Assembly (NCBI GenBank): GCA_963820525.1
Contig: CAWGAA010000001.1
Span: forward strand, 2,560,001 to 2,624,000
DNA: 64,000 nt
Direction of reading: 5' to 3'
From: an uncultured Spirochaetota bacterium
Lineage (GTDB): Bacteria > Spirochaetota > Spirochaetia > SZUA-6 > Fen-1364
This document shows, piece after piece, positions 33,001 through 42,000 of this stretch. How positions within the stretch are numbered: the stretch's first letter is position 1; the number at the start of each line of letters is the position of its first letter. A program made the position numbers.

Positions 33001-36000
33001 ATACCAGATCTGTTGGTCCGTGGGGATCTCGCCGGCTTTCAGGTACGAGGTTCCATCCTGGAGCGCCAGCGGGCCCTTCCAGAGGTTCAGGCCTCTGGCG
33101 AGCTCGGAGATGAACTTGTCCACGTTTGCCGAAGCGGAAGCGGACAGAGCGGCACCCTTCTTGAAGCCGACAGCGGAGGTATCCGGGTTGTTGATGTTCT
33201 TCCAATCCGGGCCGTTCCACTCGAAATGCGATTTCCATTTTCCGCTCATCGCCGAACTGATTGCGCGCTGGTAGGCGGGACCCCAGTTGAAGTAGGGCAC
33301 GCCCAGGCAGACATCGGGCCCCTCTTTGATGGCGTCGGAATAGTCGTAGGGGATGGCCCACACCTTTTTGCCCTGGGCGGCGAGCTTGACGGCTTCGGTC
33401 ACGGCCTCGGTGGTGTCGATGCCGGAGACCACCACGTCGTAGCCCGTGTTGAAGAAGTCGTCGGCAACCTGGGTGGGATCCGAGGTCACCCCGGGGATGT
33501 TGAACCAGAACCCGATCCACGTGACCTTGAACTTCAAGGTGGAGGGATCCTTCTTCAGATACGTGGTCCAGGCGTAGCGTGCGCCAAGGTACACGGCGGA
33601 AGCCAGCCGCCTGGTCTCGGCGTTGATTAGGGGGCCGAGGTAGCCGATCTGGCCGGTCTTGGTGGTGAGGGCTGCAGCAACCCCCGCCATCATCTTGGTG
33701 TATTCCATGCGCCCCATGATGTCGACCATGTTGGGAAGGTCTTTGTATTCCTTGCCCTCCTTCCACACCTGGGCGCCCGACGTCATGATGACGAACACGT
33801 CGGAATGAGCCTGGGCGAATTTGACCGCCTCGTCGCTCATGTCGTCGGAGCTGAAGATGACAAGCTTCGCACCCTTGGCCACCAGGCTTTCGGCAAGCTG
33901 GGAGGCGGTGGTGCCCGGGCGATCCGCCGGATTGACCTTGTCGAGGTACAGCATTTTCGCCCCGGGGACCTTGTTCACGACATACTGGGCGCCGTCGTAG
34001 TTGGCCTGGCTCCAGCCGTGGTCGTTGTACGGACCGACCAGCAGGAGGCCGAAGGTGAAGTCGCTCTGCCCGTAGGCAGCGAAGGCCACGCATGCCATGG
34101 CCAGAAGCAGGACGAGTCTGGTGAGTTGTCTCATACTCCCTCTCCTTTCACGAGATGCTTGCAAAGTGACATGGACACGATTTGTCTCGCGAGATCCAGA
34201 TTGTACTACACTTGTCGCCGCCAGCACAATCGCCGCCCGATCCCCTGTGGGCCGGCCTTCTGACATCCCTGTCGCGGCCGGCCTCCGCCCTCCGCGCGGC
34301 GGAATACCGCCGCGGGGCTAGGGCCGGCCTTCTGACATCCTTGTCGCGGCCGGCCTCCGTCCATCATAACGGCGTTTTTCTCGCTGGCGCTCGAAAAGCC
34401 GCCGTTGGACTAGGGCCGCACACGCTTCCTGTCCCTCGGGAACAGGGCGGCCTCCTTGACGTTGGCCAGTCCCAGCACCTTCTGCGTCAGCCTCTCAAGC
34501 CCGATGGCGAACCCCCCATGGGGCGGGCAGCCGTATTTGAAGATGGACAGGTAGTCGGAGAGCCCCGCCGGATCCAGGCCGAAGGTCCGGGCGTTTTCAA
34601 CAAGCATTTCATGGCGATTGATCCTCATGCCGCCCGACGTGACCTCGAGGCCCCGGAAGAGCAGGTCGAAGGCCCTGGTCTTGTTGTTCTCCGCGGGGAA
34701 GGTATAGAAGGGGCGTGACTTGCGCGGGTAGGCATGGACGAACACGGCATCGATTCCGGCCTCAACGGCCGCCCACTCGCAGAGGGTGCGCTCGCCCTCC
34801 GGCGTGATCTCGTACACCTTCTTGCCCGTCTGCCGGGAAATAATCTCCCGCGCCTCGTCGTATGCCACGCGGGGGATCTTGGGGCACAGCTCGGGCTCGG
34901 GCACCGATGCGTTCCACGCGGCCAGGTCCCCGGCGTTCTCCTCCGTGAGCCCGGAGAAGATCGATTGCAGGATCCCGACCTCCAGGTCCATCAGCTCCAT
35001 CTCGCTTTCGATGAAGGCCATCTCGACGTCCAGCGACACGAACTCGTTGATATGACGGGGAGTGTCGTGCTTTTCGGCGCGGTAGGCGGGGCCGATCTCG
35101 AAGACGCGCTCCAGGCCCGAGGCGATCATTGCCTGCTTGTACAGCTGCGGGGATTGCGTCAGGTACACGCGGGTGTCGAAGTACTCGACGGCGAAAAGGC
35201 CGGTGCCGCCCTCGGTCCCGGTGCCGATGAGCTTCGATGTCTTGATCTCGAAAAACCCCTGGCTCCTCAGGTACTCCGAGAACCTCTTGAGGATGGTTGA
35301 CTGCACTCGGAAGATCGAAAGGATCTGGGGGTTCCTGAGGCTGATCATCCTGTTGTCGAGGATCGATTCGAGGGAGAGCTTGTCCGGCTCCTGGTTCACG
35401 GGAATGGGGAGGTCGGGGGCCGCTGCGGAAAGCACCTCGATCCCGGAAACCCGAACCTCGGCCCCGCCGGGGGCCTTCGTGTTGGCCGCCGCCAGGCCGG
35501 AGACGCGCACCACGGACTCCAGCGTCACATCCGGCTTGGCTTCGAAGACGAGCTGAACGATGCCGGAGCGGTCACGCAGGAGGAGAAACGAAACCTTGCC
35601 CAGGTCTCGTATCCTGTGAACCCATCCGAAGAGGGTGATCTCCTGCCCCACGCGGGAGGCGACGTCACGAGCCAGCGTCCGCATTGCCCAGCTCCATCCT
35701 TTCCTGCGCTTCCTCCTCGCTCTCGGAAAAGGCAAGACAGGCGAGGAGCTTCGTGTAAGCAGATTCGGTGGTGAGCGATCCCATGGGAACCGCCCCTTCG
35801 CGCCACAGCTCGTGGGAGGTCACATAGCGGGAGAAGTCCACGATCCCTTCCTGCTGGGAGGTGCAGTAGATCTTCACGCCCCTCTCCTTTGCCTCGAGGA
35901 AGGCCTTTCGAAGCGAGTAGGGAGACTCGCGGAGGTTCGCCGTTCCGGTGTCGTACAGCTCCAGGATGAACCAGCGGATGCCCTTGTTCATGAAATCGAT

Positions 36001-39000: not shown

Positions 39001-42000
39001 CTGCCGGACGGAGCCTCCCGTGTCGGAGCCGAGGGCGAAGGGAACGATTCCCGAGGCGACGGCTGCCGCGGATCCGCCGCTGGACCCCCCGGGCACGCGC
39101 TTGAGGTCCCAGGGGTTGGCGGTCTTTTGGAAGGCCGAGTTCTCGGTGGAGGAGCCCATGCCGAACTCATCCAGGTTGGTTTTTCCAGCTACCACGGCGC
39201 CCGCGGCCTGGAGCCGGGCCACGGCGGTAGCGGTGTAGGGCGACACGAAGGAGCCGAGGATGCGCGAGCCGCAGGTCAACCGGAACGATCGGACGGCGAT
39301 ATTGTCCTTCACTGCGAAGGGCACCCCTGCAAGAAGGCCGGACGCCGCCGAATCTTCACCGCCCAGAGCGGGATCGAACTGGAGAAATGCGCGCACCTTC
39401 TCTTCCCGGGCCAGGGCTTGAGTCTTCCACTTTTCGCTCACTGCCCCGGGCGCCGCGATGCCGTGCCAATCCATAGGACCTCTATAATACGTTGGGGATG
39501 ACGATGAAGCGGTCTTCCCGCTGGGGAGCGTTATCGAGAAGCCGGTCGGTATCGACGCCGGCTGACTCCCTGTCTTCTCGGAGCCGGTTTTCCTTCAAGA
39601 GGGCATGTGTCGTGGGTTGGAGCGCCTCGACATCGAGGCTCCTCATGTGAGAGAAGTAGCCCAGCATCTGTTCGACGGCCTGCCGGAGCTTCTCCACCTC
39701 ATGCGGCTTCAGAGAGAGTCGCGCCATGCGGGCGGTAGTGTACAGCTCCTCGGCATCCATGGCAGAGCATTAAACCCGGAGCCCAGCGCCATGTCAAGGC
39801 GCCGGAAGCGCTCGGGATCTTACGGAAGGAGCTTGACGGAGAGAATGGCGATATTTTACATTATTGAAGGGATATCGAGGCTTCTCCTGTCGGGCGGAGA
39901 CTTTCTCTGGCGTTCAAAGCCGCTATTATCCAAGGAATACTCCGTTCTCGACCGTCATCGGTGTAAAAAAAATTTGACGGTAGAGAAGAGCATGGTACAA
40001 TACGGCAACCAAACCAAGAGCGAGGAATGTGAGTGGTCAAAAAGGATTTCCCGAGGGTTCACTTCTACGATCGAGAGCTGGTAGGGCTCTACGACGAGAC
40101 CTGGACGCTCATGAAGGACTACTGGAAGAAGGGCACCCAGAGAAACGGATTCGCCTCCCGCTATTTCAATCACCCCGACAGCACGATGATCAATCAGTTC
40201 GAGGCATGCTTCGCCACCTTCTTCCTCGTGTACTCCAACCGCATCTTCCCCGTGCTTTCCCTGCTGGACAACTTCTACGGCAAGCAGGAGGACTCCGGCG
40301 CGATCAGGGGGGAGTACAGCGAAGAGGATGGAAGGCCGCTGCACCGGCGCGACAACCCCAAGGGAATCCTCCCTCCGCTTTTCGCCTGGGCCGAGCATAA
40401 CATCTATCACAAGCTTGGGGCGAAGAAGCGAATCCGGGACGTTCTTCCAACCCTCGAGCGCTACTACCAGTGGATAGAGGATACCTTCAAGCTGGAAAAC
40501 GGCCTGTTCTCGGTCCCCCTTTCCGCCACGATGATGGACAATTCTCCCCGGGAAGACATGCACTTCCCCATCGACTTCAACTCCCAGATGGCGCTCTTCG
40601 CCTACTACATGTCGGAGCTCGCCGACATCATCAACGACAAGGAAACCAACTACAAGTACAGGAAGAGCTACTTCTCGCTGAAGACAAAGATCAACTCCCT
40701 GATGTGGGACGAGAGGGACGGCTTCTACTACGATCTGGACGCACGGGAGAAACGGCTGCGCGTCAAGACGATCGCCTCGTTCTGGCCCCTGATTGCCGAG
40801 ATTCCCAACGAAGCCAGGGGAGAGAGGCTCATCGACCACCTGGTGGATCCCCACGAGTTCGGGATCGAGAATCCCTTCCCGACCCTGGCAGTGAAGGACA
40901 AGCACTTCGACCCCATCGGGATGGGCTACCGCGGCTCGGTGTTTCCGCCCTTCAACTATATGGTCATCAAGGGCCTGGAGAAATACAAGAGGTTCGACCT
41001 CGCCCGCGAGTTCGCCATCCGCCACCTCTACTACGTTCTGGACGGGCTCTACCCGAATAACGGCAAGAAGGGTTCCCTCTTCGAAGCCTATGCGCCCCAA
41101 ACCGAGGGTCCCGCAAAGTGGCCGGGGAAAAGGGGCTTCCCGAGGTCCATGTTCCTCCCCTCCACCGCCATTTCAACGGTTTCCCTCATGATGGAGAACA
41201 TCATCGGGCTGGACATTTCCCTGCCGAGGAAGACGGTGGATTGGACCATCCCCACCCTCGAGATGATGGGAATCGAGGACCTGGCGCTGAAGAGGAACCT
41301 CATCACCATTCTGAGCAGCAAGAGCACGAGGGGCTGGGAGATACATCTGGAGAGCGAAAAGCTCTACTACCTCACGATCGACCTGTTCGGGGCGAAAAAC
41401 AAGACCCTCCCCATCCCTTCAGGCAAGTGCTCCATCCTGGTGGACAAGATATAGCACACGGGCTCTCGATTATAAGAGACTTCGCCCCTTGAACGACCGG
41501 GAGAGGGTCTGCTTGTCGGCAAATTCGAGGTCCCCCCCGACGGGAAGACCGAAAGCGATCCGTGAGACCTTGGCCCCGGTATCCTTGAGCGCCTTCACGA
41601 GATAGAGGGCCGTGGTTTCGCCCTCAACCGTAGGATTGGTGGCGACGATCACTTCCCTGACCGCGCCCCTCCGCACCCTTTCGATGAGACTGGAAATCCG
41701 AAGCTCACCCGGTCCGACGCCGTCGATCGGGGAGATGGCTCCCATGAGCACATGGTAGAGGCCGTGGTACTCGCGGATGGATTCAATGGTGAGCACGTCC
41801 TTGGGCTCCTCCACCACGCAGATCTGGCCCGCGTCCCTGCTCTTATCCGTGCAGATCCCGCAGGGATCGATGTCGGTATATGTTCCGCATACGCTGCACG
41901 GGCGGATGGTCTGCTTGAGGCTTGCGATATCTTCGGCGAGCGAGCGCGCCAGGGACTCGTCGGCTCGAAGCAGGTAGTAGGCGATTCGAGAGGCGCTCTT

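Follow-up and report, generated by a model that had tools for sequence, protein, structure and literature searches.

The C-terminal domain of the GatB protein encoded in the window (the whole stretch of 64,000 nt analysed here, in which contig position 2,560,001 is position 1 and by which all coordinates are given) is an asparaginase-like domain (AsnL) that has the complete fold, has lost the nucleophile, retains pocket and cross-subunit residues, is under purifying selection, is strictly linked to aspS2, and is an add-on to its operon. We propose, with a probability of about 0.45, that AsnL is a non-catalytic dimer-forming module of an amidotransferase dedicated to Asp-tRNA(Asn), and that it probably still binds an amino acid. 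Rather than supplying ammonia, AsnL most likely serves to organise or regulate the enzyme complex.

The gatC-gatA-gatB-aspS2 locus

The operon with an 803-aa GatB described in an earlier note on this DNA was found as a series of tightly packed minus-strand ORFs, with the following features.

39482..39760, minus strand: gatC, 92 aa; ORF, Pfam GatC 6e-16, TIGR00135 68.7 bits (cut-off 47.1)
38080..39474, minus strand: gatA, amidase-type glutaminase subunit, 464 aa; Pfam Amidase 4.4e-136, TIGR00132 513.2 bits (cut-off 481.1)
35665..38076, minus strand: whole gatB fusion ORF, 803 aa
36661..38076, minus strand: GatB proper, residues 1-472 (catalytic cradle, helical domain, and YqeY tail), from Pfam, NCBIfam, and motifs
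35665..36660, minus strand: AsnL, residues 473-803 plus the stop codon, from Pfam, PDB sequence matches, AF2, and Foldseek
36619..36639, minus strand: FGGAIVG motif, coordinates checked
36628..36630, minus strand: Ala483 codon, in place of the nucleophile Thr (Thr11 in Pyrococcus/Thermococcus asparaginases), from the 1wls alignment
36388..36402, minus strand: HGTDT (His559-Thr563), including Thr561-Asp562 of the second triad, coordinates checked
36184..36186, minus strand: Arg631 codon, facing the triad Lys (Lys156 in the T. kodakarensis asparaginase) in the alignment
34410..35684, minus strand: aspS2, archaeal-type AspRS predicted to be non-discriminating, 424 aa from the ATG at 35682-35684

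The genes gatC and gatA lie directly upstream of gatB, with gaps of 7 nt (gatC-gatA) and 3 nt (gatA-gatB), AsnL follows the YqeY tail in frame after a linker of about three residues, and aspS2 and the end of gatB overlap by 20 nt. The aspS ORF (34410-35735) extends further upstream, as far as a TTG at 35735, and the likely start of aspS2 is the ATG listed above; the consensus start MRTL of AspRS2 is common to 33 orthologues, and the NF003483 alignment begins at ORF residue 17.

The GatA translation contains the amidase-signature stretches FAVKDNI, GGSSGGSAAAVA, and GSDTGGSVRQPA, which we take to have the catalytic roles of that signature. In GatB proper, Pfam places GatB_N at residues 6-283 (375.4 bits, cut-off 23.4; 1.9e-112) and GatB_Yqey at residues 323-470 (140.5 bits, cut-off 27), and the NCBIfam equivalog NF004012 covers residues 3-471 (611.5 bits, cut-off 338). 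The canonical motifs GLEVH, HLEEDAGK, GTPLLEIV, LRCDANVS, and DYRYFPEPD are retained and align with those of the plain GatB of the same genome. With GatA, GatB, and GatC all matching at the equivalog level and no GatB motif lost, the complex needs no further source of ammonia. His11, Glu123/Glu124, and Glu149 are invariant among 37 fused GatB sequences and, judging from the motifs, would map one to one on the metal-binding His and two Glu of GatE, which are His15, Glu157, and Glu184 at the kinase site of the M. thermautotrophicus protein (PMC2330236, in excerpt).

AspRS2 scored 511 bits with NF003483 (aspartate--tRNA(Asn) ligase; cut-off 353) and 408.6 bits with TIGR00458 (cut-off 368.4). The sequences support the view that the operon joins a second gatCAB with an archaeal-type non-discriminating AspRS (ND-AspRS) of predicted relaxed specificity. 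A scan of the genome recovered the inventory reported earlier, namely a plain gatA-gatB pair (at C2), GlnRS, AsnRS (467 bits), and AsnB (481 bits); the plain pair is preceded by a weak gatC-like ORF (30.9 bits, below the cut-off). A third class II match at C1:1784803-1786470 is only partial, and the tRNA(Asn) of this genome has U1-A72.

Fold, nucleophile, and pocket of AsnL

Residues 473-803 have the asparaginase fold in full, with both of its domains. Pfam reproduced the earlier domain table of the gene (g02294; GatB_N, GatB_Yqey, Asparaginase, Asparaginase_C), with Asparaginase at 475-647 (3.5e-34) and Asparaginase_C at 680-794, and the PDB sequence search returned the same closest solved relatives, the asparaginases 4q0m (9.5e-34) and 1wls (8.5e-31), which outscored the GatD structures 1zq1 (4e-24) and 2d6f (1.6e-21). 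The AF2 model of AsnL (pLDDT 85.8, pTM 0.89) matched 5ot0, 1wls, 4q0m, and GatD 1zq1 and 2d6f in Foldseek with TM 0.76-0.80, the value for GatD being 0.76. AsnL matched, but scored below the curated cut-offs of, TIGR00519 for type I asparaginase (128.8 against 260.5 bits), NF003217 for GatD (129.2 against 310 bits), and TIGR02153 (122.9 against 324 bits). In the tree, all fused domains formed a single, long-branched clade supported by SH-aLRT 100, and the GatD sequences a separate one (98). The term 'archaeal GatD module' is not borne out as it stands: a Ser-Glu pair is common with GatD (13/13), but AsnL has its own clade, has no GatD N-terminal extension, and scores higher with asparaginases. 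GatD proper was ruled out as an identity for AsnL by the missing N-terminal domain, a partner that is GatB and not GatE, and the separate clade.

In the alignment with 1wls, Thr11 pairs with Ala483. Among 106 full-length relatives this position is Ala in 101, Ser in two, and Thr, Arg, and Val in one each, and among 121 close relatives it is Ala in 116 and Thr in one, while all 16 controls (13 GatD and three stand-alone asparaginases) have Thr. This alignment recount bears out the conservation of FGGA and HGTDT noted before, HGTDT being present in 106/106 full-length and 121/121 close relatives. The nucleophile is thus absent as claimed, but it was not the first Thr of the motif: in the 1wls alignment the catalytic Thr is the last residue of 'TGGT', and the first position, Phe480 here and Met in Pyrococcus, is non-catalytic. 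Since a domain that has lost the nucleophile Thr would not hydrolyse Asn or Gln, AsnL is, as far as its sequence tells, almost certainly no working asparaginase or glutaminase.

Nine residues of the T. kodakarensis asparaginase (Thr11, Tyr21, Ser54, Thr55, Thr85, Asp86, Lys156, Tyr233, and Glu275; PMC9916696, in excerpt) were followed through the 121 close relatives. The positions of Ser54 (Ser528), Thr85 (Thr561), Asp86 (Asp562), and Glu275 (Glu771) keep their residue in 121/121, that of Tyr233 (Tyr708) keeps Tyr in 120, with Phe in the remaining one, that of Thr55 (Glu529) is Glu in 121/121 and likewise in 13/13 GatD, that of Tyr21 is Asp or Glu in 121/121, and at that of Lys156, 99 have Lys and 22 have Arg. 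The HGTDT that the earlier note reported as kept holds Thr561 and Asp562 of the second triad; the Lys of this triad is Arg631 in the present protein. In real asparaginases, the counterparts of Tyr708 and Glu771 are contributed by the partner subunit. In a distant branch (branch C), Thr561 is replaced by Leu or Ala (HGLDT/HGADT) in 5/5 sequences with Asp562 invariant. Over all sequences, with identity as low as about 30%, Ser528, Glu529, Asp562, and Glu771 are invariant. The lid hairpin bearing the Tyr21 position is remodelled in AsnL, which together with the change from Lys to Arg in the present protein suggests that the list of retained residues may understate how different the pocket is.

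It is rather improbable that AsnL is still an enzyme that uses another nucleophile, such as Thr561, or another substrate, such as an aminoacyl-tRNA ester, and serves as a second ammonia source or in editing or release. The invariance of Thr561, Asp562, and Lys/Arg631 in the close family (each 121/121), the purifying selection on the pocket, and GatD, in which the same fold feeds ammonia to a GatB-type kinase, would agree with such an activity. However, the nucleophile position has Thr in only one close relative whereas all active relatives have it, the second Thr is also lost in the distant branch, the Lys is Arg here, and an intact GatA is encoded alongside. Furthermore, the domain order suggests that AsnL is placed beyond the tail domain, a long way from the GatA docking site.

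Selection, linkage, and descent

AsnL is under purifying selection, with dN/dS of 0.12-0.22 in eight pairs, compared with 0.12-0.32 for the helical and YqeY part of GatB. Forty AsnL columns are invariant over 33 sequences with identity down to 34%, the domain is kept in several families, and eight loci from the genomes of relatives have neither frameshift nor stop. The view that AsnL is the decaying remnant of a fused asparaginase that was once active, and is functionless today, would explain the lost nucleophile and the sister operon that functions without AsnL, but it is contradicted by this selection, by the uninterrupted loci, and by the invariant columns and retention across families, and is hardly credible. 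The 32 loci of alignment A3 were chosen for uninterrupted AsnL and aspS2 matches. Locus L031, from a long-read MAG, has several frameshift-like breaks, which are spread over all four genes.

The order gatC-gatA-gatB::AsnL-aspS2 was found in 8/8 relatives fetched and in three named Spirochaetota MAGs, and aspS2 directly follows AsnL in all 28 metagenome loci that reach past AsnL, among them those of a branch with 35% identity. The sister family f7, which belongs to the same taxonomic order, carries gatC-gatA-gatB-aspS2 without AsnL, its GatB and AspRS2 being 60% and 64% identical to the present ones; AsnL is therefore an add-on, and the pathway runs without it.

In a Treponema/Breznakiella branch, AsnL sits on a GatB without catalytic motifs, and gatC, gatA, and aspS2 are absent nearby (9/9 loci). 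The fusions of Breznakiella homolactica and Treponema MAGs score 80-139 bits with GatB_N, where the plain GatB proteins of these genomes score 350-374 bits, and the AsnL of this branch retains the Ser, Glu, Thr, Asp, Lys, Tyr/Phe, and Glu. Retention of AsnL on a motif-less GatB away from its operon neighbours indicates that the domain is of some use beyond a functioning amidotransferase. AsnL and the YqeY tail might even have a separate tRNA-linked job unrelated to transamidation, with the amidotransferase merely as carrier, and the survival of these fusions alone, with GatB motifs lost and AsnL residues kept, would fit. However, this is very improbable, as the branch is nested within the operon-borne forms (SH-aLRT 99) and is therefore derived, and linkage to aspS2 is strict in the operon-borne forms.

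Proposed role of AsnL and known systems

Considering these results, we propose the following scenario. AspRS2 would charge tRNA(Asn) with Asp, and GatB would phosphorylate and then amidate this Asp on the tRNA with ammonia from glutamine via GatA. AsnL would be a pseudoenzyme retaining residues for the alpha-amino and alpha-carboxylate groups of an amino acid, two of which are supplied across subunits in real asparaginases. By analogy with the GatD homodimer and GatE, AsnL may form an intimate dimer of the asparaginase/GatD type that joins two GatCAB tail to tail. Its pocket may hold a free amino acid, most likely Asn or Asp, without turnover, and this binding may tune or organise tRNA-dependent Asn synthesis. 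The sensor or dimerisation module proposed earlier agrees with the pocket and cross-subunit residues (Ser528, Glu529, Thr561, Asp562, Lys/Arg631, Tyr708, and Glu771), from which both functions are predicted. Two joined GatB tails, however, may fit poorly with the geometry of one AspRS dimer. The family f7 operon without AsnL, the Treponema/Breznakiella AsnL outside the operon, and the presence of AsnRS and AsnB in the genome are further points against this scenario.

The solved relatives of AsnL are all obligate dimers or tetramers with active sites at the dimer interface (PMC9916696). Furthermore, the GatD homodimer links two GatE, and the resulting dimer binds two synthetases (PMC2330236 and PMC2943598, both in excerpt). 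In Thermus and Mycobacterium, ND-AspRS and GatCAB make limited direct contact and need tRNA for association, according to parts of PMC2943598 and PMC8406222, which makes an added organising module plausible. AsnL could thus be purely architectural, dimerising or scaffolding GatCAB or stabilising a transamidosome with AspRS2 and tRNA(Asn), with no small ligand and with 'pocket' residues that only hold the fold and interface. The obligate oligomers, the organisation of GatDE by GatD, and the constant position of aspS2 after the fusion favour this possibility. Nevertheless, we regard it as unlikely, because the invariance of Ser528, Glu529, Asp562, and Glu771 exceeds what fold maintenance usually needs, and distant members vary at the second Thr and the Lys but not at the residues for the ligand backbone.

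The non-catalytic, probably ligand-binding module that we prefer can be set beside several known systems; no paper describing a GatB-AsnL fusion was found in the literature. Like the Asn-transamidosome of Thermus thermophilus and the Deinococcus AspRS2 system, the present genome encodes GatC, GatA, and GatB, an aspartate--tRNA(Asn) ligase, AsnRS and GlnRS, and a tRNA(Asn) with U1-A72; AsnRS and GlnRS are also present in Deinococcus and Thermus (PMC4206432, abstract). Unlike in those systems, the present GatB has a 331-residue asparaginase-fold domain behind the YqeY tail, a single operon holds the four genes, and the genome has a second plain gatCAB and AsnB. GatD (GatDE; 1zq1, 2d6f) likewise attaches an asparaginase fold to a tRNA-dependent kinase of the GatB/GatE type and shares the ligand-site Ser-Glu pair. 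However, GatD retains the nucleophile Thr (13/13), is a glutaminase, and is a separate polypeptide with an N-terminal extra domain, paired with GatE and its insertion domain, whereas AsnL coexists with GatA. The dimeric archaeal asparaginases of P. furiosus (4q0m), P. horikoshii (1wls), and T. kodakarensis (5ot0) are the best matches and have the same two-domain architecture, and their Tyr233 and Glu275, which come from the partner subunit, are conserved in AsnL, but they are free-standing and active with Thr11 and Tyr21, whereas AsnL has Ala and Asp/Glu at these positions and is fused to GatB. The same Thr-to-Ala change occurs in the engineered asparaginase mutants of PDB entries 7c8x ('T13A with L-asn') and 5dnc ('Asn-bound ... 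T19A'), which by their entry titles hold intact L-Asn, and numbering and motif suggest that T13 and T19 are equivalent to Ala483.

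The gatC-gatA-gatB-aspS operon and its genome

Four tightly packed minus-strand ORFs in the window encode GatC, GatA, an 803-aa GatB and an aspartyl-tRNA synthetase (AspRS), and all four products score above the NCBIfam equivalog cut-offs.

39482-39760, minus strand: gatC, ORF; NCBIfam GatC 68.7 bits (cut-off 47.1)
38080-39474, minus strand: gatA, ORF; NCBIfam GatA 513.2 bits (cut-off 481.1)
35665-38076, minus strand: gatB fusion (803 aa), ORF; NCBIfam GatB 611.5 bits (cut-off 338)
34410-35735, minus strand: aspS2, ORF; NCBIfam aspartate--tRNA(Asn) ligase 511 bits (cut-off 353)

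The alignment to the curated AspRS model begins only at ORF residue 17 and the start MRTL is common to 33 AspRS orthologues, and the start of aspS2 was therefore placed at the ATG at 35682-35684, so that the first 20 nt of the gene are shared with the end of gatB. Judged by their sequences, the four genes encode a complete Asp-tRNA(Asn) amidotransferase together with its mischarging, non-discriminating (ND) synthetase AspRS2, GatA being the predicted ammonia source. The idea that the asparaginase-like domain of this GatB stands in for a degenerate GatA was ruled out by the score of GatA, which exceeds its equivalog cut-off. A Bmp/PnrA-type ABC transporter lies downstream of the operon; its upstream neighbour is a glycoside hydrolase transcribed divergently. 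Searching 34000-40300 against Rfam (E up to 1) returned zero matches, thus no T-box or other known RNA leader, and simple scanning for promoters and terminators yielded no signal above shuffle expectation on the minus strand. In this region of 62% G+C, a 742-aa ORF (35635-37863, plus strand) runs opposite gatB, and it and the other long antisense ORFs were taken as composition artefacts.

The genome, which is 96.7% complete, was found to hold, as listed in the earlier note, a plain gatA-gatB pair elsewhere (48% and 43% identical to the operon copies), GlnRS (699 bits), AsnRS (467 bits) and AsnB (481 bits), and it has a single tRNA(Asn) with U1-A72. This plain pair makes up, with a weak gatC-like ORF upstream of it (30.9 bits, cut-off 47.1), a second gatCAB set outside the window on another contig (G000:C2:124607-128073). 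According to PMC4206432, Deinococcus and Thermus keep AsnRS and GlnRS alongside GatCAB and a second AspRS; the window's genome is like them in these components but differs in having AsnB too.

Fold, active site and constraint of the asparaginase-like domain

The window protein is a true GatB, and Pfam gives it the four spans already described for it: GatB_N 6-283, GatB_Yqey 323-470, Asparaginase 475-647 (3.5e-34) and Asparaginase_C 680-794. A linker of about 3 residues joins the final YqeY helix to the asparaginase-like domain (AsnL, residues 473-803), the best sequence matches of which are the solved archaeal L-asparaginases 4q0m (9.5e-34) and 1wls (8.5e-31), followed by GatD 1zq1 (4e-24). 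The AlphaFold2 (AF2) model of AsnL is confident (pLDDT 85.8, pTM 0.89) and superposes with TM 0.76-0.80 on 5ot0, 1wls and 4q0m and with TM 0.76 on GatD. The model of full-length GatB::AsnL reached pTM 0.55 and therefore leaves the position of AsnL relative to the GatB domains undefined. The NCBIfam models of GatD and type I asparaginase match the C-terminal part far below their cut-offs. AsnL belongs to the asparaginase/GatD superfamily and qualifies neither as an active asparaginase nor as GatD.

Substrate-binding and catalytic residues of the Thermococcus kodakarensis enzyme are Thr11, Tyr21, Ser54, Thr55, Thr85, Asp86 and Lys156, plus Tyr233 and Glu275, and both asparaginase subunits contribute to the site, according to the review PMC9916696. 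These nine positions were read across 121 close relatives (identity at least 53%).

Residues in the 121 close relatives at the nine positions (T. kodakarensis numbering)
Thr11: Ala 116, Ser 2, Thr 1, Arg 1, Val 1
Tyr21: Asp 73, Glu 48
Ser54: Ser 121
Thr55: Glu 121
Thr85: Thr 121
Asp86: Asp 121
Lys156: Lys 99, Arg 22 (Arg in the window protein)
Tyr233: Tyr 120, Phe 1
Glu275: Glu 121

In the alignment with 1wls, Ala483 stands opposite the nucleophile Thr, and the nucleophile position is Ala in 101 of 106 full-length relatives. The loss of the nucleophile claimed in the earlier note is thus upheld at Ala483, but not at the residue it had named as the first Thr, Phe480, which corresponds to a non-catalytic Met in Pyrococcus. 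On the same alignment, 13 GatD proteins (recognised by their length and a neighbouring GatE-like gene) and three stand-alone asparaginases served as controls; all 16 have Thr at the first (nucleophile) position, and their remaining catalytic positions read Thr, Asp, Lys and Glu. The Ser-Glu pair is common to GatD and AsnL. AsnL is therefore a conserved asparaginase fold without the nucleophile. As read from the alignment, the loss appears specific to the nucleophile and its lid Tyr, and the residues predicted to hold the backbone groups of the amino acid, including two supplied across the dimer interface, are retained. A residual or altered catalysis by AsnL is considered unlikely. By their titles, PDB entries 7c8x and 5dnc are Thr-to-Ala mutants holding intact L-Asn, which suggests that substrate can sit in a site of this kind without turnover.

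Pairwise dN/dS (NG86), at a dS of 0.8-1.2 that is near saturation, was 0.12-0.22 for AsnL in eight pairs, a ninth being saturated, compared with 0.04-0.14 in the GatB catalytic domain and 0.12-0.32 in the helical and YqeY part. The constraint on AsnL is therefore about that on GatB's own tRNA-binding tail, and that the domain is a relic seems most improbable.

Relatives, groups and distribution

A word-indexed search with AsnL returned 717 proteins. The best 120 of these all carry GatB and asparaginase Pfam domains and, where their sources name them, go by GatB or 'asparaginase domain-containing protein, partial'; as previously stated, the database label for the fusion is GatB and the named relatives among these 120 are Spirochaetia metagenome-assembled genomes (MAGs). 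In an exhaustive search of 50% representatives, fusions continued down to 30% identity, below which the matches dropped to ordinary asparaginases. In a maximum-likelihood tree built quickly from 77 domains, the fused domains form one clade (SH-aLRT 100, stem 1.42), the only sister grouping of which has a support of 88 and a near-zero branch, and GatD forms a separate clade (SH-aLRT 98). Descent of AsnL from GatD thus finds no support in the tree, and the suggestion that AsnL is the archaeal GatD module was not borne out.

The fused proteins fall into three groups. In group A, the order gatC-gatA-gatB::AsnL-aspS2 occurs in 8 of 8 fetched relatives from three families of the order, as well as in three named Spirochaetota MAGs. 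Group C is distant and was seen in metagenomes only (P0153, P0154, P0156, P0159 and P0160); its GatB is intact, its AsnL is 30-35% identical, and the second Thr is also lost, HGLDT or HGADT replacing HGTDT in 5 of 5. The single group C contig recovered (L111:3302-8315) again reads gatA-gatB::AsnL-aspS2. Across metagenomes, aspS2 directly follows AsnL in all 28 loci that continue beyond it, and two more loci end there.

Group B, nested within group A (SH-aLRT 99), comprises Treponema and Spirochaetaceae MAGs and the cultured Breznakiella homolactica RmG30, and its fusion stands alone, gatC, gatA and aspS2 being absent nearby in 9 of 9 loci. GatB_N scores only 80-139 bits there, compared with 350-374 for plain GatB (four of the five genomes searched), and the GatB motifs are decayed, with for example LEVRIL for GLEIHxQL and DYRYFPEPD lost. 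In B. homolactica (NZ_CP067089.2) the stand-alone fusion lies at L042:5495-7999, similar loci are L033-L035 and L037-L041, and a normal GatB is encoded in the same genomes. Since one host is cultured, the group B fusion is open to study. This group suggests a separate tRNA-linked job for AsnL, which we nevertheless regard as quite improbable.

Within the same family, 22 of 24 further genomes gave strong AsnL matches (E ≤1e-44), and the two that gave none are 70% and 77% complete. Elsewhere in the order, 3 of 16 genomes of other families have such matches. Across an evenly drawn sample of the phylum, strong matches (E ≤1e-40) occur in 13 of 401 genomes including the window's. The ND-AspRS model also scores above its cut-off in some AsnL-free genomes. 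Both genomes of family f7 of the same order carry gatC-gatA-gatB-aspS2 with a GatB of normal length (G030 and G037; L143:4755-9333 and L144:4495-9077), GatB and AspRS2 being 60% and 64% identical to those in the window, and the AsnL search returned zero matches in both. AsnL was thus added to an already existing operon, which functions without the domain. Three genomes of family f2 (G025, G039 and G032; loci L145, L146 and L147) encode another archaeal-type AspRS above the ND-AspRS cut-off, which is 37-38% identical to AspRS2 of the window and has no adjoining gatCAB.

Proposed role of the asparaginase-like domain

Considering these results, we propose the following scenario. As the cross-subunit residues are conserved, AsnL may keep the intimate dimer of its relatives; such a dimer would bring two GatCAB particles together in the way that two GatE are joined by the GatD homodimer, and according to PMC2943598 the latter dimer is then able to bind two synthetases. 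The pocket may have kept its affinity for an amino acid, Asn or Asp being the likeliest. Transamidosome enzymes are described in PMC2943598 and PMC8406222 as having limited mutual contact and needing tRNA for association, and the AsnL module could stabilise or gate such an assembly. We give this combined reading, in which the AsnL dimer would pair GatCABs and its pocket would bind an amino acid, a probability of roughly 45%. Set beside the retained backbone-holding residues, a purely architectural role is somewhat unlikely. It is likewise somewhat unlikely that AsnL is a natural 'substrate-trap' asparaginase, that is, an allosteric sensor of free Asn (or Asp) that dimerises two GatCABs and lets the amino-acid pool switch tRNA-dependent Asn synthesis. 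A complex prediction for AspRS2 (alignment A4) and AsnL (alignment A3), run twice without controls, scored 0.00 each time, the mark being 0.32, and counts neither for nor against binding.

GatCAB, fed by an amidase, and GatDE, fed by an asparaginase, count as two separate solutions for making amide aminoacyl-tRNAs (PMC2330236). The fusion places the kinase subunit of the former and the glutaminase fold of the latter on one polypeptide, the latter fold being catalytically disarmed yet conserved. A full-text literature search, largely without reach into subscription journals, found no paper on a GatB-asparaginase fusion. Should AsnL form a dimer or sense an amino acid, it would offer a first handle on the organisation or regulation of tRNA-dependent Asn synthesis where AsnRS and AsnB are present, and a clean natural case of an enzyme turned binding module. 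Were the sensor reading true, the complex would rank as the first tRNA-dependent amidotransferase regulated by a ligand, and as a GatCAB that follows the archaeal GatDE plan of a dimer of amidotransferases. The unfused sister operon and the treponemal branch with decayed GatB provide ready-made comparisons.

A 167-aa ORF about 45 kb before the window start (L004:1498-2001; G000:C1:2514834-2515337), directly after a histidine-kinase-like gene, encodes an asparaginase N-terminal domain only, with TGGT and HGTDT intact.
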